A stretch of 64,000 nucleotides of DNA from Candidatus Thorarchaeota archaeon (GCA_048882045.1 JBHLRZ010000016.1:10738-74737); one strand, 5' to 3'; positions 23,056 through 45,220 are shown, counted from the stretch's first letter. The notes: a model not told the origin generated them from the sequence alone. Numbers and translations are program-made.

Positions 23056-24110
23056 TGGCGAAGGTTGAACTTAGAGAACTTGTGAGAGAGTTTGCTGATG
23101 GAACTAGAATTGGTCCAATTAATCTCATAATTGAAGATGGCGAGTTCCTCACATTACTGGGACCATCAGGAAGTGGTAAGACTACGACACTACGAATGGT
23201 TGCTGGTTTCATTGAGGACGTGGAGGGAAAACTACTCTTTGATGAAAAGGATGTAGTCGATGTACCTCCAAGAGAACGAAGTATCGGAATGGTCTTCCAG
23301 TCAGTTGCCTTGTTCCCAAACATGCGTGTGTACCAAAACATATCTTTCGGTCCAGAGATGGCAGGTTGGACGAGAGAGAGAACAATAGAACGAGTTGAGG
23401 AACTCGCTGACCTTCTGGGTATTCGAGGGCTCCTGCTGAGAAAGACCAATGAAATTAGTGGAGGAGAAGCACAGCGAGTTGCCCTCGCCAGAGCTCTAGC
23501 AAAAGAACCAGAACTCTTGTTGCTGGATGAACCATTATCTGCTCTAGATCCTCAGTTGAGAGAGAATTTGCAGACTGAGATTCGAAGAATCCAAAGAACA
23601 TTGAACATAACGACAATCTATGTCACACATAGTCAGGACGAAGCATTTGCAATCTCAGACAGAGTGGCAATTCTGCAAGACGGAATGGTTAGTCAAGTTG
23701 GTACTCCAGAAGAATTGTATGATGCTCCTGCGAATGAGTTCGTTGCTAGATTCCTCGGGAGCGGCAACATATTCAATGGAGAAATTGTGGAGAATAACAA
23801 CGGACTTCTTGTCCAAGTCAATGGAAATCAATTCAGTTTTCCAGGGGAAGGAGAGATTGGTGAGGTCATCACATTCAGTGTAAAGCCGGAGGATGTGATC
23901 ATATCAGCTCATGCTAGAGATGGATGGGTGAAAGCAGAAGTGGTGGCTATTACTCCGCAGGTTGGTTCATTCAGGGTGTCTATCGATTTCGATAATATTC
24001 AGATAATTGCATCGACAACTGATGAACAGCTGGTGAAACAGCTAAGAACCAATAGTGACAATGGTATTTACTTTGCATTTGATTCTGAATCAGTCTTCAT
24101 CTTCAGATGA
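23055..24110 (+). CDS. thiQ: Thiamine ABC transporter ATP-binding subunit (with TOBE domain)
   Basis: GPSGSGKTT, ISGGEAQR, LLLDEP, YVTH. Confidence 0.88.
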   Translation: MAKVELRELVREFADGTRIGPINLIIEDGEFLTLLGPSGSGKTTTLRMVAGFIEDVEGKLLFDEKDVVDVPPRERSIGMVFQSVALFPNMRVYQNISFGPEMAGWTRERTIERVEELADLLGIRGLLLRKTNEISGGEAQRVALARALAKEPELLLLDEPLSALDPQLRENLQTEIRRIQRTLNITTIYVTHSQDEAFAISDRVAILQDGMVSQVGTPEELYDAPANEFVARFLGSGNIFNGEIVENNNGLLVQVNGNQFSFPGEGEIGEVITFSVKPEDVIISAHARDGWVKAEVVAITPQVGSFRVSIDFDNIQIIASTTDEQLVKQLRTNSDNGIYFAFDSESVFIFR

Positions 24111-25181
24111 TTCGAAGTCTTCTCCTGGAGGAGGAGGAATGTTGTAACCTTTGGATTCTGGTTTTGGTACAGGCTCTGGTTCCGGTGGAGGTTCTAATAC
24201 TGGTTCAGGTTCGGACTCCATATCACTTGATGTTGACGGAGAAGGCACTTCCGCCGTCATAAAGACCTGACGCTCAACCAGAGATAGAACCTGACTACGA
24301 ATATAATCTGGAGAAGTTGCCATATCAGGCACATTGTATCGTGTTGAAAGGTACTGCATCATAGAGAGGGTTGCTCGTTTTTTGACAAATACAAAGATGA
24401 TTGTAAAGTTCAGAATTATTGAGAAGAGTGGTCCAATAGCGATGAGGATAATAAAAACCGGAACCCATGGAGCAGTAAAACCAATGCTCAATGTGAGCTC
24501 TAGCCAGACAAGAATAATGTCCACTCCAGCGAAGAACTCCAAGATATCCTCCACGTCATCTCCAACATTACTTAGAGACCTATCTTTTTTATCGAGATGA
24601 AACAGTCCTGCTTCCTTCATCAACCACGGACCATAGTAGAGTAACATGACCGTAAATGGGAGAATAAGTACACTTACAATCATCAAGACTGCACCAATAT
24701 AGATCAGACCCTCTGCATCAATACTCGTCATCAACTCGAAACCCAGAATTGTGAGAGCTATTCCGACAATGAGGACTGAGCCGTACAGAGACCTTCGAAA
24801 TGCAGCCCTTAGATTCTCATCCTCTGGCTCTGGTGACATGAAATAGTCTCCCGCGTGGTGTTTTGCACGTCTGTGAATCCAAAGAGGAAGACTCACTGTT
24901 CGCGGCCATTTTACCAGGATTGCACAGAGGATCACTGCAAGTATTATAGAGCCTACTGCGGCTCCCAACATATACATTGTATAGGGAACAAATCTCGTAG
25001 GGTCGAAGCTATAAAGACCGGAGAAGTTTAGCAAAGACAAAAGTCCCCAAGTGGAAGCAAGCAAAATCAACGTCGATATTAGGAATCCAAGGATGAGTTT
25101 AGCAATGCTTAGCTCCTTGGCTTCATCGAACAACTGCTTGTACGGATTGGTATATGTCTGTGCTTCTTCCATTTTCAGCAA
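24090..25181 (-). CDS. Hypothetical polytopic membrane protein with Pro/Glu-rich C-terminal tail
   Basis: ~6 TM segments; tail EPEPVLEPPPEPEPVPKP...IPPPPGEDF. Confidence 0.7.
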   Translation of the reverse strand: MLKMEEAQTYTNPYKQLFDEAKELSIAKLILGFLISTLILLASTWGLLSLLNFSGLYSFDPTRFVPYTMYMLGAAVGSIILAVILCAILVKWPRTVSLPLWIHRRAKHHAGDYFMSPEPEDENLRAAFRRSLYGSVLIVGIALTILGFELMTSIDAEGLIYIGAVLMIVSVLILPFTVMLLYYGPWLMKEAGLFHLDKKDRSLSNVGDDVEDILEFFAGVDIILVWLELTLSIGFTAPWVPVFIILIAIGPLFSIILNFTIIFVFVKKRATLSMMQYLSTRYNVPDMATSPDYIRSQVLSLVERQVFMTAEVPSPSTSSDMESEPEPVLEPPPEPEPVPKPESKGYNIPPPPGEDFESSEDED

Positions 25182-25337
25182 CCGAATAGTGTTAGCACAT
25201 CTGACTCATAAGCCTTCTTGACACTTATTGAAAGAAGAACACCCATCTATCTAGCACAAAATAGTTCATATAGCACAAGATGAGATTAATCGTTGCGCTG
25301 GCAATGCCAACTCTGCATAGTAACGTAGTGATTGATT

Positions 25338-26252
25338 ATGGTTGTAGGCTACGAAGTTTTAGAAGACGGAACCCTGAATGAGGTCGAGCTCACAAAAGAT
25401 GACCTTGAATCAACCAAGGTTGTCTGCGTCGTTGATGATGAAACAAAGAGCATCTATCTCTGGAAAGGAACCCAGGCAGGAGTTAGGAGAAAGTTCATTG
25501 GCGCAAGGGTTGCGACCAATCTCCGGACAGAGTATGGATTTCATTTTAAGGTCAGACCTTTAGATGAAGGAGAAGAACCCCCAACCTTCTTTTCAGCACT
25601 TGATGGCACAACTGCAGCAGCAAGGATTCTAAAACCAGGAGAATCAGCCCCGCCCCCAAGTCCACCCAAACCGAAGACTGAAGCTCGAGCTGAAGAAGCA
25701 GCAGCACCTCCCAAACCAAAACCAGATACATCAACTCCAAAAACAACTACAACACCTCCGCCTACACCAAAAACAGCTGCACCTCCACCAAGACCACCGA
25801 CATCAACACCTGCGTCAAAAAGCCCACCAGTTTCAGCAGAAATCCAAGCTATGATAGCAGAACTAGAAACAGTCGATCCACCAGAGGGCTACCAGCGAGA
25901 GTTACTCATTGTTTACAACGAACTGTTTACAGTAGCGGAGCACAAGATTGCAGTCTTTGGACAGGAAAAGGTTGAACGTAAGTTCGAGAAAGTGAAAGAT
26001 CCACCTGAAGGGACATTTATGGCAGAAGGTTTCATTCCACGAGTCATAGTACAGGATGGTAAGGTCTTAGGAATTGAGCTTCTCAAAGGAACTCCGGATG
26101 CAATCCTCAGTCCAATAAAGGCAGAGATGAAGGAACGCCTAGGGGATCTCATTACATTCTTCCGTTCAGAGATCGAGGAAGAAGCAATGTCCAAGGACAA
26201 GGCTGACGCAAAAGCTAAGGGTAAGAAAGGCAAGAAGCTTGTTGCCAAATAA
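25338..26252 (+). CDS. Gelsolin-domain protein, Asgard 1DGelX-like (gelsolin domain + Pro-rich linker + C-terminal domain)
   Basis: VCVVDDETKSIYLWKG...RKFIGARVA...LDEGEEPPTFF matches the gelsolin repeat pattern; ~70 aa Pro/Thr linker; C-terminal PPEGYQRELLI domain. Confidence 0.8.
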   Translation: MVVGYEVLEDGTLNEVELTKDDLESTKVVCVVDDETKSIYLWKGTQAGVRRKFIGARVATNLRTEYGFHFKVRPLDEGEEPPTFFSALDGTTAAARILKPGESAPPPSPPKPKTEARAEEAAAPPKPKPDTSTPKTTTTPPPTPKTAAPPPRPPTSTPASKSPPVSAEIQAMIAELETVDPPEGYQRELLIVYNELFTVAEHKIAVFGQEKVERKFEKVKDPPEGTFMAEGFIPRVIVQDGKVLGIELLKGTPDAILSPIKAEMKERLGDLITFFRSEIEEEAMSKDKADAKAKGKKGKKLVAK

Positions 26253-26274
26253 TCATGATCCAAGAGGAATACAT

Positions 26275-26664
26275 ATGTCATCTAATCTCGACCCAGCAAA
26301 GGAAAAGGAGCTTGTCGAGCTCCTAATGGGCTTAACAAACTATGCAGATCTTGATGCCATCGCTGTCATCAGCAAACAAGGTGTCAAACTTGCGTACTTT
26401 GCAACAGAGGACTCAGATGTTGATCCAGACCTGATGGCAGCAATGAGTGCTGCACTTCTCAGTACTGGAGAAATGGCGGCTGGAAATCTTGAGTTGAACG
26501 AGCTCTATGAAGTAATAGTTAGAGGGAAGGATGGATTTGTTGTCCTCTCTCATGCAGGAGAGTTTCTACTTATGGGATCCGCAAAGGACCTAACATCGAT
26601 GGGACTCGCAGTCACTCAGATGAGAAAATACGCAAGAGAAGTCGGTGAACTTCTGGGTCAATAG
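26275..26664 (+). CDS. Roadblock/LC7 domain protein
   Basis: AVISKQG...DLMAAMSAALL...EL.EVIVRGKDGFVVL...MGL pattern. Confidence 0.88.
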   Translation: MSSNLDPAKEKELVELLMGLTNYADLDAIAVISKQGVKLAYFATEDSDVDPDLMAAMSAALLSTGEMAAGNLELNELYEVIVRGKDGFVVLSHAGEFLLMGSAKDLTSMGLAVTQMRKYAREVGELLGQ

Positions 26665-26760
26665 TAACTCATTAGCTTCGTTCCATCCGAGATTATGTTA
26701 CATGGGTTAATAGTCAATAATCAATAGCAGATTAATGACGATTATTTGGTTGAATGAATC

Positions 26761-27171
26761 GTGAAGGGAATCATTGTGTTTGATGAAGGAGGCGTAAGTC
26801 TTGCCTCAGTCGGTTTAGAGAACATCAAGCTCAATGAGGACCTTTTTGGTTCATTCATTGCTGCCATTCAGGCCTACGCCCAGAAATCAGTTGGAAGCAT
26901 GATGAAGTCACTAACGTATAGCAAAATGAAACTCATGATTGATTTTGCAGCTGAGAATTTTGTAGTCACTCTACATGGAATTGATGACCCTGATGCTGAC
27001 TGGAACCACAGTGCCACTGTAAGAGTGATTGAGGGAGATGGATTCGAACTCAATCAGCAATACCTCGAAATCCTAAGGGAGCTCTTGACAGACGAAATCG
27101 TATCACCAGATGAAGTTGAGAATGGGATTGATAAGCTCAGGAAAGCGACGCGATCATTCCTAGATAAGTAG
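26761..27171 (+). CDS. Small longin-like domain protein
   Basis: IIVFDEGGVSL...NEDLFGSFIAAIQAYA...MKSL, the same pattern as the N-termini of 43502-45220. Confidence 0.6.
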   Translation: MKGIIVFDEGGVSLASVGLENIKLNEDLFGSFIAAIQAYAQKSVGSMMKSLTYSKMKLMIDFAAENFVVTLHGIDDPDADWNHSATVRVIEGDGFELNQQYLEILRELLTDEIVSPDEVENGIDKLRKATRSFLDK

Positions 27172-27309
27172 GCTAGTCAACTGTTAATTGAGTGGAACGA
27201 ACCGATCAGTTATAGAACAGTCAATTACACTGCTGATAAACCATATTGAGTATATGGTGAAAAGACATAATTGAGAAAAGACAACCAACTCAAATTATGA
27301 GGTGATTCT

Positions 27310-28974
27310 GTGGTAAGAAATCTCTCCCTCCATTTTCTATATCGGAAAGAAGGAACAAGAATTGAGGTTGAACCTGAAGGTGTTGGATTAATTGATGCTC
27401 TTGTAGCTGCGGAGTCACTCAAAGGTAGTAGTTCTAGAGTAGCAAGTCTGAGTAGAGTATCATTCCCATTTTGGTTGGTTCAGACATCATCAACAAAATC
27501 AATCATCCTATCAGCATCAAGTAGTATGATTAAGCAATTTCAGTTTACAGACATCAAAGGTGCTAGTGAAATAAGAAGGATTGTCAGTTCTGAGGTCACC
27601 CAGTCATCAGACATTCCTGTTGCGGTATCGAAAATTGGACCTCTCCTGGATCAAGTAGACACATACACAGTTGACCTTTCAGGGTTGATTGCACCAGCAG
27701 CATTTGTTTCCGTTGGTAGGCTAATTGTTGCTTCTGATCCAAATGCTAAACCCAATAGAATGGAGATGAGGACAGATTCCGGGGGTGCATTGAAAAGATC
27801 AGAAGAGTTCAAGGAGGTCTCTGAATCAGTAAAAAGAAGGACAGAAGCGACAGAAGCCATAAAGTCTTTGTTCAAGGAGAAGCTTGGAGGTCAATCTTCA
27901 ACTCTTGAGAACCTGATTGAACTCGAGAGAAAAAGGTGGGATGAGAGAATCAAAACTATGCAAGAAAGAACCGCTCAGGAGATTGTTGGACTCAAAGAGA
28001 AGAGGGATGACCAATATTACAACCTTGGTGAGAAACATAAGATTGCTTTACGTGCCTTGACTGCGGATTTCGCTAGAGCAGCAAATGACCTTGAACAGCA
28101 TTTTACACAGATATCCGAGCAAATCAGAGATGCAAAATCGAAGATAGGACAAAAAGAGGATGATGTTGAAGGAGCAATCTCCATTTACGAAGATCTTGTA
28201 AATAATGTACGAAAGACTATCGAGAGAAGCAATCAACCTATTGAAGTAATGGATAGAAAAAGAGAAGAATTAGAAAAACGAACTGTCGAAGCCAGAAGGA
28301 ATTACGAGCAGGAAAAGACCCAGGCTCAATCATCTCTTGAGTTACAGATTAATGACATCCAAAAGAGAATTGAGGACACCAAGAGCGAGCGAGAACAAAA
28401 CCTGAGAGAACTCGATGAATTGAGGCTCAATGTGAATTCGGTGATTGAGAAGGCTTACAAAGATGTTGAAAACAAGATCCTCAAGTTCCAGGAGGAGTTC
28501 CTAAATCTCATGTCTTGGACTTTGGACAATAACTCGATAAATCAGCTAGCTCCTCTAACTCAACTGGACATTCACACTTATGTAGCGAAATTTGACAATG
28601 ACCTATACAAAGTGATTACCCCTCATTTCACACCGGAAACTTGGAATTCTATAACACCAGGAGCGGGGGTTGTCCTCAGTAGAGAGTTTGATGAGATGCT
28701 CACGACATCAATTGATGAATGGATGAAGTCTGATCGATCCTTCAAAGAAGCTTTTGATCGTGCATGTATCAAAGGAAATGTGTTTCTAGACCCTGAAGGC
28801 GAAAAGATGCTAGCTGCAGGATTTGAATCACTGAGTAATAGAAAACTACTAGGATCTTCTGACATAGAGAGATATGCAAGACTTTGGTACAGATATGCCA
28901 AAAAGTGTCCAAAATGCAGTAGCGAATTAGAAGCTGGAGCAAAGTATTGTAATAGTTGTGGTTCTGAATTGTAG
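27310..28974 (+). CDS. Long coiled-coil protein with C-terminal zinc ribbon
   Basis: ~240 aa heptad-rich central region; CPKC...AKYCNSCG at the C-terminus. Confidence 0.75.
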   Translation: MVRNLSLHFLYRKEGTRIEVEPEGVGLIDALVAAESLKGSSSRVASLSRVSFPFWLVQTSSTKSIILSASSSMIKQFQFTDIKGASEIRRIVSSEVTQSSDIPVAVSKIGPLLDQVDTYTVDLSGLIAPAAFVSVGRLIVASDPNAKPNRMEMRTDSGGALKRSEEFKEVSESVKRRTEATEAIKSLFKEKLGGQSSTLENLIELERKRWDERIKTMQERTAQEIVGLKEKRDDQYYNLGEKHKIALRALTADFARAANDLEQHFTQISEQIRDAKSKIGQKEDDVEGAISIYEDLVNNVRKTIERSNQPIEVMDRKREELEKRTVEARRNYEQEKTQAQSSLELQINDIQKRIEDTKSEREQNLRELDELRLNVNSVIEKAYKDVENKILKFQEEFLNLMSWTLDNNSINQLAPLTQLDIHTYVAKFDNDLYKVITPHFTPETWNSITPGAGVVLSREFDEMLTTSIDEWMKSDRSFKEAFDRACIKGNVFLDPEGEKMLAAGFESLSNRKLLGSSDIERYARLWYRYAKKCPKCSSELEAGAKYCNSCGSEL

Positions 28975-29046
28975 TTGGGTCCTTTCTTTATGGTTTAATA
29001 ACAAATAATATACGGTGGATGGCGAGCAGCAGAAATAGGGGTAAAG

Positions 29047-30249
29047 ATGAAACTCGACATCACTCCACGTGCAGCAAACCTCCAATATGCAATTCGAGAT
29101 ATCGTTGTTGCAGCAAGAAAGTATGAGAAGAGAACAGGGGAGAAACCTCTCTATCTCAATATTGGTGATCCCATAAAATATGATTGGAAAACTCCTCAGT
29201 ATATGGTGGATGCAATCTGCAAAGCAGCAAAAGAAGGCTGGAATGGTTATTCTCCTTCAGAAGGTGAGGAGCAGCTCAGGATATCGGCTGCAGAAAAAGA
29301 GAAACGAGTCAATGGGATTGATGTCAATCCAGATCGGATGATAGTCACATCAGGGGTCTCAGAGGCAATCCAGTTTCTCTGTGGTGCTCTCGTTGAGCGA
29401 GGTTCTGAACTTCTGGTTCCAGGACCTTCATATCCTCCATATATCAGCTATGTGAATTTCTTTGGTGGAAAGCCAGTTGCCTACAGGACAATCGAGGAGG
29501 ATGATTGGAATCCGGACACAGATGACCTCCGAAAGAAGATCACAGACAAGACAGTAGGTATACTTGTCATCAATCCAAACAATCCCACAGGCTCAGTGTA
29601 CAACGAGAAAACACTTAGAGAGATTGTAGCAATTGCTGGCGAACACGAACTGCCCCTAATTTCAGATGAGATCTATGATCAGCTGACCTATGACGAACCA
29701 CAAACACCAATGGTCAGAATAGCAGGCGATGTACCTGTCGTCGGTTTCAACGGAGTAAGTAAAGTGTACCTTGCACCTGGATGGCGTGTGGGGTATGCTT
29801 ACTTCCACGACATGAGTGGTGAGCTCGACCCACTATACGATGCGATGATCCGTCAGGCGAGAATCAGGATATGTTTGAATGCCACTGCACAGATAGCAGC
29901 AGCAACAGCATTGGCTGGAGATGGAAGTCATCTAAAGGATGTCATGAGTCGTCTTCGGATAAGAAGGGATTTGATACACAAACGACTCAACGAAATCGAT
30001 TCAATTTCAACACGACTACCTGAGGCAGCCTTCTACATAATGCCTAAGGTTGATCTACAAGGGAGATGGAAGGATGATTATGAGTTTGTATTGGCAGTCC
30101 TTGAAGAAACAGGTGTGGTATTTGTTCCTGGTAGAGGATTCGGTGTAGAGTATGGAGCTGGACACTTCCGAAGCGTGTTTCTACCACCGCCAGAGATGAT
30201 TGAGGATGCAATGAATCGCCTTGAAGGATTCATGATTAAAAACCAGTAG
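29047..30249 (+). CDS. Class I/II PLP aminotransferase (alanine aminotransferase AlaA-like)
   Basis: YAIRD, LNIGDP, INPNNPTG, SDEIYD, NGVSKVYLAPGWRVG. Confidence 0.9.
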   Translation: MKLDITPRAANLQYAIRDIVVAARKYEKRTGEKPLYLNIGDPIKYDWKTPQYMVDAICKAAKEGWNGYSPSEGEEQLRISAAEKEKRVNGIDVNPDRMIVTSGVSEAIQFLCGALVERGSELLVPGPSYPPYISYVNFFGGKPVAYRTIEEDDWNPDTDDLRKKITDKTVGILVINPNNPTGSVYNEKTLREIVAIAGEHELPLISDEIYDQLTYDEPQTPMVRIAGDVPVVGFNGVSKVYLAPGWRVGYAYFHDMSGELDPLYDAMIRQARIRICLNATAQIAAATALAGDGSHLKDVMSRLRIRRDLIHKRLNEIDSISTRLPEAAFYIMPKVDLQGRWKDDYEFVLAVLEETGVVFVPGRGFGVEYGAGHFRSVFLPPPEMIEDAMNRLEGFMIKNQ

Positions 30250-30348
30250 TGGATTATTGCATACTTCTTGCTGTTGCAGTCTTTCTCAAGAGGAAGTTCT
30301 AAACTCCTTACCATCTTTCTTACATAGAATCTGGAGTAGATTGTAAAA

Positions 30349-32019
30349 TCACTCAAGCTCAGCTTTCTTCGATTCGAGTAGTTGTGTTATTTCATTTCTT
30401 AGAGACCTTGCCACTACAAGTGCCATTTCGATCTTCTCAGGAGTTGAGGGGCGAGCTTCATCTGCGAGAAATGGATTACCTAGAACCTTAGTTGTTTCTG
30501 ACTGAATGTGGGTGACATCCGTTCCTGATAGCGCCAGATGATCTGCAAGATCCTTGATCTTCCTCACACCATCTTTCACTTCTTTCCTTTTCGCGGCAAT
30601 GTCATCCCATTCCCTGAGGCTCTCTTGAGCCTCAGTTTCGAGCTTTCGCTCCTGATTGGTCAGTTTTTCGGTGATTTCTGTTAGAACAGGCATCAGTTTT
30701 CCGCGTGCGAAAGCTTTCTTCTCAGCTTCCTTACTTTCTCTGACCTTTCTAATTAAGTTCTCATCACCTACGATCGCATCGATAGTGTCAATCATTTCAT
30801 TGACGATTTTTACTCTGGCTTTTGCAGAGTCCAATTCTCCTGCTTCAACCTCTGCACGACCTTGTTTCAAAGAAACTATTAGACTGTCTACTAATCTAAC
30901 AAGTGGTTCCGATTCAAGGTCAGTCGTTTCAATAGTTTCTTTCAGAACACTCACTCTGCCATCTGTGACATCTGCATCTCGGAGCAACTTCTCAGATTCT
31001 TTGAAGTCTTTCAGAACTAGAGTTCCCGGACCGGCCTGGAGTGTGTAGGCTGTCTTGAGCTTGTCACTATAAGAACCTCGTACTATGACTGAGAACTCCT
31101 TCATTCCTTCAAGTGCTTGGGCAGATTTGAGAACCACTGCAAGATCAAGAGTGTCTCCAGGTGGCAGGACATTGACAGATTTGGTTCTCTCTCCGGATAC
31201 CATCTGTAGCCCCTCATCGAAATGCCACTCGACAGAGAGACCTGTTGCCTCGCCATTACCATTGTTCTTAATCAGAACCTTAACAGGGAATTCCTCCGTA
31301 AATGTAAGATCAACAGGAAGAACCAGTTGAGAAGATAGCTTTGGAACCTTGAGCTTACCCCTCAGGAGCTCTCGAACCATATCGAGACCTCGGTCAACAT
31401 ATTTGCTAAACTCCTGACTGTTGGCACTCGCCAGAGCAGCTTTAAGTTCAGTCACTGCTGCATTCTCTGCTGACGCAAATGCCTCAAGGTTGACTGACTG
31501 AATCGCACTCTCCAGCATCTGGGGAATCTGACTCAATCGAACAGTGGCAGGTAGCCTCAATTTTGAAGCATTCTCAGCAGCGAAACCTCGTGCCTTATAG
31601 AATCCATCAGCCTCTTTACCAATCATGATGTAAATCATACAACTAGCCATTGCGAGTGCAGTACCCTTACTTGTTTCTGCATCTTCGCCCCACATGAGAT
31701 GTTCATTAGAAGCCAACATTAGATCATCTGCTGCAATTTGATAGGCTTCGATGGCTTTTGTTGCATCGCCAATATCAGAAAAGACATCACCTGCTGCACA
31801 CATGTTGAGTGCAGCCTTCTTGTAGCTCTTTGAACCACGATATTCATCTGCTGATTTCAGAAATGCCTCAGCCGCCAGACCATATTCGTGGTCTGCAGTC
31901 GCGATATCTTTGTTCCGCTCAGCCTCAGCAGCTCTCATAAGATGCTGTCGTCCTGCGGACTGTCTAATCGTATCTTTCTGAGACTCCTCAATCCATCTCT
32001 TGGCACGCTCTTCCGACAC
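30349..32019 (-). CDS. Hypothetical protein: SNAP/TPR-like helical repeats + Ig-like (CARDB-type) domain + coiled coil
   Basis: AAEAFLKSADEY..SYKKAALNMCAAGDVF..IGD..KAIEAY; VLIKNNGNGEATGLSV...LPPGDT beta-sandwich; helical C-terminus. Confidence 0.6.
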   Translation of the reverse strand: MSEERAKRWIEESQKDTIRQSAGRQHLMRAAEAERNKDIATADHEYGLAAEAFLKSADEYRGSKSYKKAALNMCAAGDVFSDIGDATKAIEAYQIAADDLMLASNEHLMWGEDAETSKGTALAMASCMIYIMIGKEADGFYKARGFAAENASKLRLPATVRLSQIPQMLESAIQSVNLEAFASAENAAVTELKAALASANSQEFSKYVDRGLDMVRELLRGKLKVPKLSSQLVLPVDLTFTEEFPVKVLIKNNGNGEATGLSVEWHFDEGLQMVSGERTKSVNVLPPGDTLDLAVVLKSAQALEGMKEFSVIVRGSYSDKLKTAYTLQAGPGTLVLKDFKESEKLLRDADVTDGRVSVLKETIETTDLESEPLVRLVDSLIVSLKQGRAEVEAGELDSAKARVKIVNEMIDTIDAIVGDENLIRKVRESKEAEKKAFARGKLMPVLTEITEKLTNQERKLETEAQESLREWDDIAAKRKEVKDGVRKIKDLADHLALSGTDVTHIQSETTKVLGNPFLADEARPSTPEKIEMALVVARSLRNEITQLLESKKAELE

Positions 32020-32114
32020 TGTTTTTCTCTCTCCTTCTCAAGCTAAATACACGAGACGGTTTCAACCCTTCGCTTTGTTCGATGAGTCAAGACCTTATGC
32101 ATTCCATGCGAATC

Positions 32115-32408
32115 CTAGTACACTTCACGTGGAGAGTGCCTGAGTCTATCAGGTAGTCCTCCACCATGACCCTCTATCACAAGCTCGTATCCTCTTCCAA
32201 TCCTACCCTTTGAGGCAGTCTGAAATCCAACCTTCTCAATACCGCGAGCATTGCGTTCCGCGGCTCTACGCTCGATCATGCTTGCTCCACCAGGAATGGC
32301 AAGAATGAGCTTCTTCAAGGATTCATCAACAGTCAGAGTGATTGGCATTGTAGGAGTGCCAGAGCACTCATGAAATTGGCTGTCCTTATACTCGAGTAAA
32401 TGCTTCAT
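32115..32408 (-). CDS. Single-domain gelsolin-like protein (ProGel-like) with C-terminal WH2-like motif
   Basis: LTVDESLKKLILAIPGGASMIERRAAERNA (strand-strand-helix); C-terminal GGGLPDRLRHSP resembles gelsolin G1 GGVASGFKHV. Confidence 0.55.
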   Translation of the reverse strand: MKHLLEYKDSQFHECSGTPTMPITLTVDESLKKLILAIPGGASMIERRAAERNARGIEKVGFQTASKGRIGRGYELVIEGHGGGLPDRLRHSPREVY

Positions 32409-32494
32409 TTGAACTATTACACCATCCAAAGGTCAGTTCTGGACAAATCCCCCACGTGGTTACATATTAGGATTTGGCGGATGAAATGATTGCA

Positions 32495-32540
32495 GAAATA
32501 AAGAAGAATTGAGCCCAGGACCCGAGGGTCCAAAGGCTCA
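32495..32540 (-). terminator. Hairpin + U-rich terminator
   Basis: Minus strand TGAGCC-TTT-GGACC-CTCG-GGTCC-TG-GGCTCA followed by ATTCTTCTTTATTTC. Confidence 0.55.
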
Positions 32541-32562
32541 GAAGTAACACGATATACTAGGT

Positions 32563-32838
32563 TTAGTCCGGCGGCGGGGGTGGTGGTGGTGTATCATCGA
32601 GCTTAGTGTCGACCGGTCTAAGTACCGAATCGCGCTTCTTCCTTGTGAAGACAAAGCCAACAATAATCAACAACAATCCTAAGATTGCCACAACAGCACC
32701 AATCATCATTGTGTAGCCAGGGATGAGATCATATCCCGCCCCAGGTAACAATGCGAGAATGGCACCGCCAATCACTAAAAGCGCACCAAGACACACGGGT
32801 CCTGAACGCGTATACTCACGCCATGTCAAGTAGCTCAA
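32563..32838 (-). CDS. Small 2-TM membrane protein with C-terminal polyproline
   Basis: Two TM helices, RKKR, then LRPV and TPPPPPPPD. Confidence 0.7.
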   Translation of the reverse strand: MSYLTWREYTRSGPVCLGALLVIGGAILALLPGAGYDLIPGYTMMIGAVVAILGLLLIIVGFVFTRKKRDSVLRPVDTKLDDTPPPPPPPD

Positions 32839-32938
32839 TTTTCTAAGCTCCTACTCGAGACTTACCACGCGGTCTCGTCTAAACAAGATGAGTCATACGT
32901 AGCGATTTAAGATTATTGGGTAAATAACACTGCAAGAA

Positions 32939-33808
32939 TCATTCAAAGGCTATGCTCACGATGCATCCAGTTGATGAAGTATTTACACTGACTTTTGCTC
33001 CAGTCAGTTCACTCAACCTCTTTGCTATTTTCTCGTGAAATGTGCATGGATAACCAGCTGGAATCTTTGATGCCTTGGGATCCATCTCATGACAGGTTGT
33101 TAGTAGCTTGCAAGTACCAGTCTCGACAGTTGCTGTACCAGTGCCAGTCTTGGGTAGTTGACTCTCATTTGAACAACTCTGAATCAGCGAGGCGAATTTT
33201 ATGAGTGCTGTTGGAGGCTCATTTGGATTTGACATGGCCCAGCGATAGATCAGAGCATCAACTACTCTGTTGAACATGTTATCGAGATGTCCCTTTGGCA
33301 ACTCTGAGGCATATGCGGCAATCTCACATATCATTGCTGCGTGTGCTTCGACATTCATTGCCCAAGCTGCTTCGTCCTTTACTCGGTGAAGTGGGGGAAT
33401 CTCTCCTATTCTCATGTCTGGCAGATCTGCAGAGGTAGCTGATTCCTCAATTGCAACCTCTCCCTTCTCAGCAGCAGCAATGCCACCGATTGTGGTACCA
33501 TCTTCATATGTCAAATCAGGTATTTCGTAGTTCGGACATACTCCAGCAGTCTGATATTTCCTCGCAAACTGCATCAGTCTTCCTGCCATTTGGGCTACAG
33601 CATATCTACTTAGACCTTCAAATCGGATGTTGCCATAAGCTATACCTACCATATTCTCAAGGTCAAGTTCAGGCATAGTCTTCTCTGCGAGTATCTTCTT
33701 ACCTCTGACGATTCGCATCGCCCACATTTCATTCATGACTCCCGCCTGAGCACCATAGCTTGTATTTGGAATTCCGACGAGTGGGGAAACGGGATAGAAA
33801 TCACTCAT
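32939..33808 (-). CDS. Hypothetical protein with C-terminal V4R/H-NOX-like Cys-containing domain
   Basis: VETGTCKL..C...YPCTFH...L.ELTGAKVSV...GCIVSI Cys pattern typical of V4R-fold domains. Confidence 0.5.
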   Translation of the reverse strand: MSDFYPVSPLVGIPNTSYGAQAGVMNEMWAMRIVRGKKILAEKTMPELDLENMVGIAYGNIRFEGLSRYAVAQMAGRLMQFARKYQTAGVCPNYEIPDLTYEDGTTIGGIAAAEKGEVAIEESATSADLPDMRIGEIPPLHRVKDEAAWAMNVEAHAAMICEIAAYASELPKGHLDNMFNRVVDALIYRWAMSNPNEPPTALIKFASLIQSCSNESQLPKTGTGTATVETGTCKLLTTCHEMDPKASKIPAGYPCTFHEKIAKRLSELTGAKVSVNTSSTGCIVSIAFE

Positions 33809-33879
33809 ATTACAGCCTCAATATCCACTGTTCTGAAAATCATGGTCAAATGTGATTCAAAAGGGTATTGTGGTTGTAT

Positions 33880-33930
33880 GAAAAGAAAAGTGGAAACTGG
33901 ATGGTCATTCGCATCCAGTCTGTTTCCACT
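33880..33930 (-). terminator. Hairpin + U-tract terminator after cdc48
   Basis: Nested stems AGTGGAAAC/GTTTCCACT and TGGATG/CATCCA; minus strand continues TTTTCTTTTC. Confidence 0.6.
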
Positions 33931-42262: not shown

Positions 42263-42661
42263 TTGACGGACTCAAGTCAGAGTATCATGAAGCTTCAAGA
42301 GCAGCTAAGCGACCTTCTTAGAGCACTATCAAGTAGATCCCCCATTCTTGGAGCTGCTGTATTTTCAATAGAGGGACTTCCATTAGTCAGCAGGTTTCAT
42401 GGTGGCACTGAGGAAGCTTCCATAGCAGCTATAGTGGCCGCAATCCATGCTGCCGGTGAGCAGACTGTCAAAGAACTACGGCAAGGAGAACTCAAATCAA
42501 TCATAATTCAGGGAGACCTAGGAACAACTCTTGTAATTTCAATATCATCAGACTATCTTCTAACTGTTACAGCCCCGGATAATGCCAAACTCGGACTTAT
42601 CTTCAGTGATGCAAAGAAAGCAGGGAGAGATGCTAGGAAGATTCTCCATCAGGCAATTTGA
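42263..42661 (+). CDS. Roadblock/LC7 domain protein
   Basis: GAAVFSIEGLPL...IAAIVAAI...ELRQGELKSIIIQG...AKLGLI. Confidence 0.9.
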   Translation: MTDSSQSIMKLQEQLSDLLRALSSRSPILGAAVFSIEGLPLVSRFHGGTEEASIAAIVAAIHAAGEQTVKELRQGELKSIIIQGDLGTTLVISISSDYLLTVTAPDNAKLGLIFSDAKKAGRDARKILHQAI

Positions 42662-43501: not shown

Positions 43502-44320
43502 CTACTGAATACTGAGACACCCTTCTTCGACCAATTTGTTGATGATGAACCACATCGCTCGTGGATCATACTTGAGTGATTCAAGGACCGCTCTAACTTT
43601 CTTGGTGCCATCGAACTCTTTTAGGATATCATCCAAAGGTTTTCCATATTGAGCCCTCAATTTTTTGAGTTTCATTTCAGGACAGTCTTTCCTGACCAGA
43701 ATGTTATCCTCAGTCAATCGAGCCTTGAATTCAATCCAATTGTACCGAGTAAGGATGGAGATCAGAGCTAGGACTTTTTCATCTGGAAATCCAATAAGAT
43801 CCATTATCTCAGCTACGGTTCGTTTTCCATTGATGAACGATTCTACTTGCTCCAAATCGTGATCAACAGAACCTACCCTGAAGGGGATCCGAATTCCATT
43901 CTTTGATTGGATTGGCACAAGATCAAGATCTGCTGTGGAGAATGGGAATTCTTGAACAACTGTAAGAGCAGATTCTCTGAATCTGCGAACATCTCCCTCA
44001 AAGTGTCGAAGTTTTTCCCCATGATCAACCTCAACCTGACTTAGAATTCGTTTGAGCTTTTCACGGTACGGCGACTCGTCTGCGACTGGATCCACAACTA
44101 GCAAAACAAGTATATTCTCACCAACCTCGATTAAGATATCATATGCGGCCTTTCTGATTGTCCGTATTGGGGTCTTAGCAAAAATGATGACCGCTGTAAC
44201 AAAGCCTGCAATCAGATCTGGATCGACAGTGAGCTCAGCATATGGAATGTTGAGAACAGACTCTCCTCCTTCCATTCGAATCAATGAGATGTATCGGACC
44301 TTAGAAACGTCTAGAGCCAT
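43502..44320 (-). CDS. Longin-like + tandem winged-helix protein (paralog 2)
   Basis: RYISL.R.EGGE...VDPDLIAGFV.AVIIF N-domain; two (N/D)G.(R/K)..V wHTH repeats. Confidence 0.65.
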   Translation of the reverse strand: MALDVSKVRYISLIRMEGGESVLNIPYAELTVDPDLIAGFVTAVIIFAKTPIRTIRKAAYDILIEVGENILVLLVVDPVADESPYREKLKRILSQVEVDHGEKLRHFEGDVRRFRESALTVVQEFPFSTADLDLVPIQSKNGIRIPFRVGSVDHDLEQVESFINGKRTVAEIMDLIGFPDEKVLALISILTRYNWIEFKARLTEDNILVRKDCPEMKLKKLRAQYGKPLDDILKEFDGTKKVRAVLESLKYDPRAMWFIINKLVEEGCLSIQ

Positions 44321-44323
44321 CTA

Positions 44324-45220
44324 TCATCCCTCCACATCTTTGACTGAGGATACAGTCTTTGAGTCACTATATCCCAAGACTCCTGCATCAATCAGGTTGT
44401 TTGCTACGAGACGAACAGCCTCCATATTGAACGGGAGAAGTTCACATATTTCTGCGAGCGTGCGAGTTCCATTAATCTGTTCAACAAGTTTGGTAAGTTG
44501 TTCACCATACACTCCCTTTAGGAAGAGTGGAGGATCCATGATCTTGACCAATACTGAGTTATCCTCAAGTTTTCTGGTGAAGGAAATCCATTTGTATTTG
44601 TCAAGCATCGATAGAATAGCAATCACTTCATCATCTTCCAGGCTCGATTGCTTCATTATATCCTCTATTGTACGTTTCCCATTAATGAAACCCACAAGAA
44701 TTTGGAGTTTTTCATCAGTTTCACCCACCGACCAGGGAATATTGGCATGAAGATCAGGCGTTGCTTCTGATTTTGCCACCATTTTAGGAATCATCTCGAG
44801 GGCGAAATTCCTGTAAGGATATGCCCGAAGTATTTCGAGAGCATATTCTCGAAATGGACGAATATCACCCTTCCAGGCTTCTAGGAGAGGTTGATGTGTC
44901 GATTCGAAATGTTTGACTATTTTGATCAAGTTGTTTCTGTAGGGATCGTCATCTTCCACCTTATCTACAATGAGTAGTCCGACGACATAATCACCCTCTT
45001 CGATGACTACCGTATAGCCTTCTTTCGTGAATGTCCTCAATTGTCTGTTTTCAAAAATGATTACTGCTAGAACGAAGCTTGCAACAAGGTCGGGGTCTAC
45101 ACTCATCTCTCTATAGGGGATACCTATGATTGGTTCTCCTCCTTCTTTTCGAACGAGAGAGATATAACGGACTTCTGCCTTCTCTATGCCAGATTCGTTC
45201 ACACCATCTTTCAGAAACAA
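44324..45220 (-). CDS. Longin-like + tandem winged-helix protein (paralog 1)
   Basis: Same architecture; INGKRTIEDI and INGTRTLAEI repeats; clearly paralogous to 43502-44320. Confidence 0.65.
   Translation of the reverse strand: MFLKDGVNESGIEKAEVRYISLVRKEGGEPIIGIPYREMSVDPDLVASFVLAVIIFENRQLRTFTKEGYTVVIEEGDYVVGLLIVDKVEDDDPYRNNLIKIVKHFESTHQPLLEAWKGDIRPFREYALEILRAYPYRNFALEMIPKMVAKSEATPDLHANIPWSVGETDEKLQILVGFINGKRTIEDIMKQSSLEDDEVIAILSMLDKYKWISFTRKLEDNSVLVKIMDPPLFLKGVYGEQLTKLVEQINGTRTLAEICELLPFNMEAVRLVANNLIDAGVLGYSDSKTVSSVKDVEG

Follow-up and report, generated by a model that had tools for sequence, protein, structure and literature searches.

The closest described relative of the gelsolin studied here is 1DGelX (KXH72031.1; Akil et al. 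2020, PMC7444086), an SMTZ1-83 protein made of one gelsolin domain (35% identity to ProGel), a linker and an X domain; it binds actin and, with no need of calcium, nucleates and severs it, and the recombinant protein is active alone. In the cultured L. ossiferum, gelsolins named B35_Gel1 and B35_GelX have been reported (10.1101/2025.11.30.690169). Gelsolins, profilins and Roadblocks, which bear on how Asgard archaea control the sites where actin is cut or grows and its ties to the membrane, have been published separately. Here we analyzed a stretch of 64,000 nucleotides of a Candidatus Thorarchaeota archaeon (GCA_048882045.1 JBHLRZ010000016.1:10738-74737), hereafter the window, and in it about 10 kb where a 1DGelX-type gelsolin gene, called GelX below, is followed after 22 bp by a Roadblock/LC7 gene. 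The genome belongs to the Thorarchaeia, its close orthologues carrying the name Candidatus Thorarchaeota. The 10 kb is part of a layered, old Asgard core-genome neighbourhood and not a purpose-built island. Our reading, to which we give a probability of about 0.5, is that within this layered neighbourhood GelX and Roadblock would form a regulatory core, and that a separate membrane microprotein ending in seven prolines (Pro7) may recruit profilin, the functions being proposed by analogy. The components are of known kinds, and it is the pairing that is new relative to the literature searched: the pair was not described there, most subscription papers being outside the reach of the search, and a Roadblock neighbour is unmentioned (0 occurrences) in both gelsolin reports cited above.

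GelX and its Roadblock neighbour across Asgard archaea

The gelsolin domain of GelX matches ProGel (7C2F) with an expectation value (E) of 2.8e-13 and 35% identity, and its model superposes on that structure with a Z of 16.7 and a root-mean-square deviation of 1.1 over 88 residues. After a Pro-rich linker of low model confidence comes the X domain, and there is no second gelsolin domain, which is the architecture of 1DGelX. Full-length GelX is present as a single copy in this genome; this, together with its architecture and the ProGel identity of 35% given in PMC7444086, suggests that GelX is orthologous to KXH72031.1. The X domain, treated as coiled-coil or disordered in PMC7444086 and 10.1101/2025.11.30.690169, is modelled here as a folded beta domain with one helix at its end (helix, five strands, long helix; pLDDT ~95). 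Foldseek returned no match to this model at E<=0.001, which is no proof of a new fold; the best VIA-align match (Z 5.3) covers long helices only, and Atlas matches are restricted to Asgard clusters. The family profile has matches in 293 of 332 Asgard genomes, 87 of 94 longer representatives have the X domain behind a gelsolin domain, and an amphipathic C-terminal helix is present in most GelX proteins.

The window Roadblock matches PF03259 with E 8e-12 and 45.2 bits (curated cut-off, 23), and its profile also finds two Asgard Roadblocks of the same fold, PDB 9JUE (3e-11) and 7F8M (1.5e-9). To follow the pair, GelX loci were sampled from 25 Asgard families, which are related, so that the counts are not independent (families, loci, contigs and genomes carry our labels f, L, C and G). 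The two genes adjoin in 35 of 36 Thorarchaeia loci, and a Roadblock gene lies <300 bp from GelX in 13 of the 25 families; in one further family the distance is 5.7 to 54 kb. The paired Roadblock is mostly co-oriented with GelX (convergent in three genomes), and the pair has been kept through inversions in G039, G142 and G204 and has outlasted full turnover of the flanks on both sides. The runner-up, the gene of the repair enzyme Nnr, is found <=4 kb from GelX in 6 families. A scan of the window with bacterial-type promoter and terminator models gave a signal at chance level.

The Roadblocks adjoining GelX fall into one clade (93/98), separate from the other Roadblocks of this genome, from which most of the paralogue set in the tree was taken. 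A non-circular check agrees: when the window Roadblock was searched as a single sequence against 10 distant genomes, the GelX-adjoining gene ranked first in 6 and second in 4. This genome has 15 Roadblock hits, scattered over it, and out of the ~15 Roadblock genes per genome the pairing singles out one that may regulate the actin pathway.

Where the pair is broken, two lineages have signalling genes beside GelX instead, which is suggestive. In f18 (L134:4073-6343, L141:4017-6311), a gene for a Rab-like GTPase comes 23 bp downstream of GelX, and a second, divergent small-GTPase gene comes next. In f23 and f24 (L118:2541-3395, L120:5515-6444, L121:2136-3038), a Roadblock gene lies 0.6-0.9 kb from GelX, between it and a KaiC/RadA-like ATPase gene; its product belongs to a different clade, has a long Pro-rich tail and ends in a conserved C-terminal motif. 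Intact pairs can also have such company: in f3 and f29, and only there, a Rab-like gene is found two genes upstream of GelX (L050:6449-11056, L088:485-5397), its GTPase domain fused to ~400 residues and followed by Nnr, GelX and Roadblock on one strand.

The matching pair in L. ossiferum is UYP47899 (B35_Gel1) and UYP47900 (Roadblock). UYP47899, the orthologue of the window GelX, is enriched in the Lokiactin co-immunoprecipitation (co-IP), with a log2 fold change of 2.08 (p 0.004; 10.1101/2025.11.30.690169, Table S2). In the proteome of the same study, the intensity of UYP47900 is ~17-fold lower than that of GelX (15.67 vs 19.78 log2). These data are more easily reconciled with a sub-stoichiometric regulator than with a constitutive subunit, and they would also agree with mere neighbourhood. 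As regards names, the B35_GelX of that preprint is UYP44381, and the X domain is carried by both proteins, our profile aligning across X in B35_GelX; the profile nevertheless prefers UYP47899 (8.8e-62 vs 1.5e-30), and it is there that the Roadblock neighbour is found (L145, L146).

A layered neighbourhood

The initial annotation had described the region as a candidate island of genes coupling actin dynamics to the membrane. Its ten open reading frames (ORFs) were recovered at the same coordinates and on the same strands (Table 1), the starts of GelX, Roadblock and the 97-aa gene (25338, 26275 and 32408) being refined from deposited proteins.

Table 1. Genes of the analyzed region (positions in the window; aa, amino acids; TM, transmembrane segments).
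Gene product	Position	Strand	Remarks
~5-TM membrane protein, no assigned family	24090..25181	-	patchy in Thorarchaeia; IPPPP tail unconserved
1DGelX-type gelsolin	25338..26252	+	304 aa; gelsolin domain ~1-90, Pro-rich disordered linker, beta-rich X domain, C-terminal helix
Roadblock/LC7 protein	26275..26664	+	129 aa; clade adjoining GelX in 13/25 Asgard families
Longin/Roadblock-like protein	26761..27171	+	136 aa; position specific to the window's genus
Coiled-coil/Zn-ribbon protein	27310..28974	+	554 aa; insertion hot-spot passenger, homologues elsewhere in other genera
Class I/II aminotransferase	29047..30249	+	old neighbourhood member, unrelated function
SNAP/TPR-like repeats, CARDB-type Ig and helical C-terminus (SNAP-Ig), putative	30349..32019	-	556 aa
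Degenerate gelsolin-like protein, probable	32115..32408	-	97 aa; no WxG or EGxE motif; family found widely in Asgard
2-TM microprotein	32563..32838	-	91 aa; basic patch, C-terminal Pro7-Asp tail; Thorarchaeia only
V4R/ATC-hydrolase-fold protein	32939..33808	-	289 aa; Asgard-specific N-terminal domain; conserved Cys in C-terminal domain

Gene order is indeed conserved across Thorarchaeia genera, but it does not discriminate, the whole 64-kb window being equally collinear: 52/58 and 47/58 window ORFs are collinear in two other genera, ABC transporter, thermosome and topoisomerase VI genes included. Synteny within Thorarchaeia is unusable as evidence for a functional module. Most genera of the class retain the order GelX, Roadblock, aminotransferase, SNAP-Ig, 97-aa, 91-aa, V4R, cdc48. 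In most of the other genera, V4R and cdc48 flank a GH38 alpha-mannosidase-like gene (830-890 aa), which the window lacks (33808-33929). The 10 kb has a GC content of 42-46%, the same as the remaining window, and with this uniform composition and collinear flanks a horizontally acquired genomic island is ruled out.

The junction between Roadblock and the aminotransferase gene is a hot spot of insertion, where unrelated genes, elsewhere metabolic or S-layer-like, take up 0 to >20 kb; in one relative (L037:1-12621) it is filled by an ORF of at least 4207 aa. The longin-like gene occupies it in 14/15 loci of the window's genus and 0/21 loci of other genera, and the position of the coiled-coil gene is limited to the same genus, its homologues being located elsewhere in other genomes.

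Outside the class, remnants of the neighbourhood are still found: in f18, homologues of SNAP-Ig and of the 97-aa protein are encoded <=10 kb from GelX; in f4, Roadblock adjoins SNAP-Ig; in f13 and f21, a V4R gene is 3-8 kb from GelX. The aminotransferase, AN1/M50 protease, cdc48 and thermosome genes show the same remnant linkage near GelX in other classes, and because housekeeping genes show them too, these remnants mark an old neighbourhood and not a specific actin module. The aminotransferase gene, first taken for an interruption of the island, is as old a neighbour as the rest. The region is thus built of three layers: the GelX-Roadblock pair; a run common to the Thorarchaeia (V4R, 2-TM/Pro7, 97-aa and SNAP-Ig); and genus-specific passengers. 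Three of the nine proposed members of the actin-membrane module do not stand, namely the longin-like gene, the coiled-coil/Zn-ribbon gene and the IPPPP tail; the GelX-Roadblock pair, the membrane Pro7 and a loose linkage of SNAP-Ig, V4R-fold and 97-aa genes do.

Proposed function of the pair and alternative explanations

We propose that the functional core of the region is a two-gene unit in which one Roadblock is dedicated to the 1DGelX gelsolin. Since 1DGelX is not gated by calcium, control of GelX may be supplied by the co-encoded Roadblock, which would act as a low-abundance, transient adaptor, or as a GTPase-activating-protein-like partner of a small GTPase encoded elsewhere, and would switch or position GelX. 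MglB and Ragulator are analogues in which a Roadblock relays the state of a small GTPase; the window protein shares the PF03259 fold with MglB (partner of MglA), Ragulator and dynein LC7, but its gene partner is an actin regulator and not a GTPase. No cognate GTPase gene of the MglB type lies beside it, and the contig (C16) holds no Ras-family match, whereas 33 such hits (~1% of ORFs) are found on other contigs and Roadblock-GTPase gene pairs are present on C33, C57 and C14. The initial annotation had remarked that actin, profilin and GTPase genes were lacking from the window; C16 as a whole has none for actin or profilin either, these being on C1 and on C12 (57109-57495), respectively. Separately, the 2-TM/Pro7 protein of Thorarchaeia would show its polyproline to the cytoplasm and so bring profilin-actin to the membrane. 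In this reading the genes for SNAP-Ig, the V4R-fold protein and the 97-aa protein would be old neighbours, and the longin-like and coiled-coil genes and the IPPPP tail late additions. A wider proposal, which we put forward tentatively and consider rather unlikely in full, is that of an ancestral Asgard link in which Roadblock couples GTPase state to GelX and the Pro7 protein tethers profilin-actin, a forerunner of GTPase-controlled cortical actin turnover. A complex prediction for two Roadblock copies and the X domain (GelX ~164-288) scored 0.03 against a mark of 0.32 and was weighed neither for nor against.

Several observations weigh against a regulatory core. GelX and the related Roadblock are unlinked in 9/25 families, and the simplest history of the 13/25 is one ancestral pairing with losses, not 13 events. 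The metabolic Nnr/YjeF gene is also tight to GelX in 6 families. Since Ras-like genes make up ~1% of ORFs, the GTPase neighbour in f18 is possibly due to chance, and Asgard GTPases seldom share an operon with the proteins that regulate them (PMC10933270). In L. ossiferum, the Roadblock UYP47900, a small, low-abundance protein, is absent among the positively enriched co-IP rows listed, and the upstream Nnr is enriched too (1.66; 10.1101/2025.11.30.690169), meaning that the Lokiactin co-IP is broad. Adjacency and co-IP can both mislead, Nnr being at once a tight neighbour of GelX and co-IP enriched.

The first alternative is inertia of gene order, in which GelX and Roadblock are ancestral neighbours that share a promoter and work in different processes, the region being a slowly eroding core block. 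The collinearity of the whole window in Thorarchaeia, the presence of the aminotransferase, AN1/M50 protease, cdc48, thermosome and Nnr genes near GelX in other classes as well, the split of the pair in 9 families and the ~17-fold intensity gap would all suit it; yet no other neighbour nears 13 families at <300 bp, and the adjacency outlives inversion and complete flank turnover, so that we hold inertia to be a real but minor possibility. It is improbable that the full 10 kb was selected together as a single module linking actin dynamics with the membrane. In favour of such a module, the 10 kb brings together two genes of gelsolin fold, the unique Pro7 of a membrane protein and folds resembling SNAP, V4R and Roadblock, and remnant linkages are seen in f18 (SNAP-Ig, 97-aa), f13/f21 (V4R) and f4 (Roadblock-SNAP-Ig); however, three of its members are genus-specific, housekeeping genes are equally linked, in most genera the GH38 glycosidase gene stands between cdc48 and the minus-strand run, the distributions of SNAP-Ig and V4R homologues outside Thorarchaeia are largely non-overlapping, and the actin and profilin genes lie on different contigs from this one. 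A stable complex, in which a Roadblock dimer is a constitutive subunit that clamps the helix ending the X domain, much as the intermediate chain is bound by dynein LC7, would fit the tight bicistron, the amphipathic helix of most GelX proteins and the known binding of helices by Roadblock dimers, but it is quite unlikely given that helix-less GelX proteins of Lokiarchaeia (L122, L127, L131, L132, L140) still have their Roadblock neighbour, that the abundances do not match in proteomics and that recombinant 1DGelX is active on its own.

The Pro7 microprotein and the other proteins of the region

Among the 3679 ORFs of the genome, the 91-aa protein is the only one with six or more consecutive prolines (PPPP occurs in 20). 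Hydropathy gives it 2 TM, and the terminal Pro run is kept in 11/11 orthologues, a second family of the class included; no homologue was found outside Thorarchaeia in the genomes searched. A Thorarchaeota profilin binds polyproline, in the form of a VASP peptide, at 200-500 µM (PMC8410842). The microprotein, whose tail is predicted to be cytoplasmic, is a good candidate for a membrane anchor of profilin, and its tail would offer a concrete native ligand for a profilin so far assayed with a eukaryotic peptide only. Ena/VASP, formin FH1 and WASP are likewise polyproline recruiters, a resemblance of motif only: the 91-aa protein is an integral membrane protein without a nucleator domain or any sequence relation to them, and is limited to Thorarchaeia. 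Its LRPV was considered as a WH2-like motif and ruled out, as the Arg varies among orthologues. The IPPPP tail of the other membrane protein (363 aa, 5 TM by hydropathy) is ruled out as a conserved docking motif: PPPP is present in 8/22 orthologues, all from part of the window's genus. That family gave no significant PDB or Pfam sequence match.

The 97-aa protein probably has a degenerate gelsolin fold, as judged from sequence comparisons. Its Atlas features are 0.93 similar to a cluster with 28% PF00626, and the top ten named matches are all of that family. Direct alignment to the gelsolin profile by hhalign is weak (P 0.004-0.02), and the 97-aa family has no Pfam or PDB sequence match. A 258-aa divergent gelsolin-like protein bridges the two families, matching the GelX and 97-aa profiles over the same stretch (E 0.003), next after the true members; its gene is found at C15:10653-14568, a stretch that also encodes a Rab-like GTPase, a membrane protein and a longin-like paralogue. 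The end of the 97-aa family (window 32115-32160), a short helix followed by L-K/R-H-S, recalls the actin-binding motifs of WH2/thymosin, only the Leu being nearly invariant. A paralogue is encoded on C18 (48191-48493), and in f13 (L226:5926-8014, L227:6025-8079) a homologue is found 1.1 kb from another gelsolin-domain gene.

In the 289-aa protein, Atlas models show the V4R/ATC-hydrolase fold at residues 137-289 only (TM-score 0.61-0.75, depending on the target), and C233, C255 and C282 are invariant. Membership of the V4R clan is moderately supported, at clan level only and not as TRAPPC3: it has the V4R-clan fold in common with TRAPPC3, near cdc48, but is closer to ATC-hydrolase-like models, and the family gave no significant PDB or Pfam sequence match, including to the solved Thor TRAPPC3. 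Profile matches of its orthologues give moderate support to SNAP/TPR plus CARDB-Ig domains in the 556-aa protein: SNAP/TPR (PF14938) is found in 12/16 (best E 2.5e-5), TPR families being equally good, and CARDB-Ig in 10/16 (best E 1.5e-4), the window's own protein having no PF14938 match. Compared with alpha-SNAP/Sec17, which works with NSF or Cdc48, its N-terminus is SNAP/TPR-like, but the Sec17 match reaches only E 0.047, and the Ig and helical domains are extra.

Of the labels first given to these genes, longin-like for the 136-aa protein is the weakest: it stands on one match, PF08923 (E 0.0015, in 2/12), and on a strand-first pattern seen by eye, the family having otherwise no significant PDB or Pfam sequence match. 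The C-terminal Zn ribbon of the 554-aa protein and the aminotransferase are well supported by profile search. Further along the window, a second Roadblock gene (42263-42661) is found with two tandem paralogous ORFs (43502-45220) whose N-termini look longin-like by eye, and this group is collinear in other genera.

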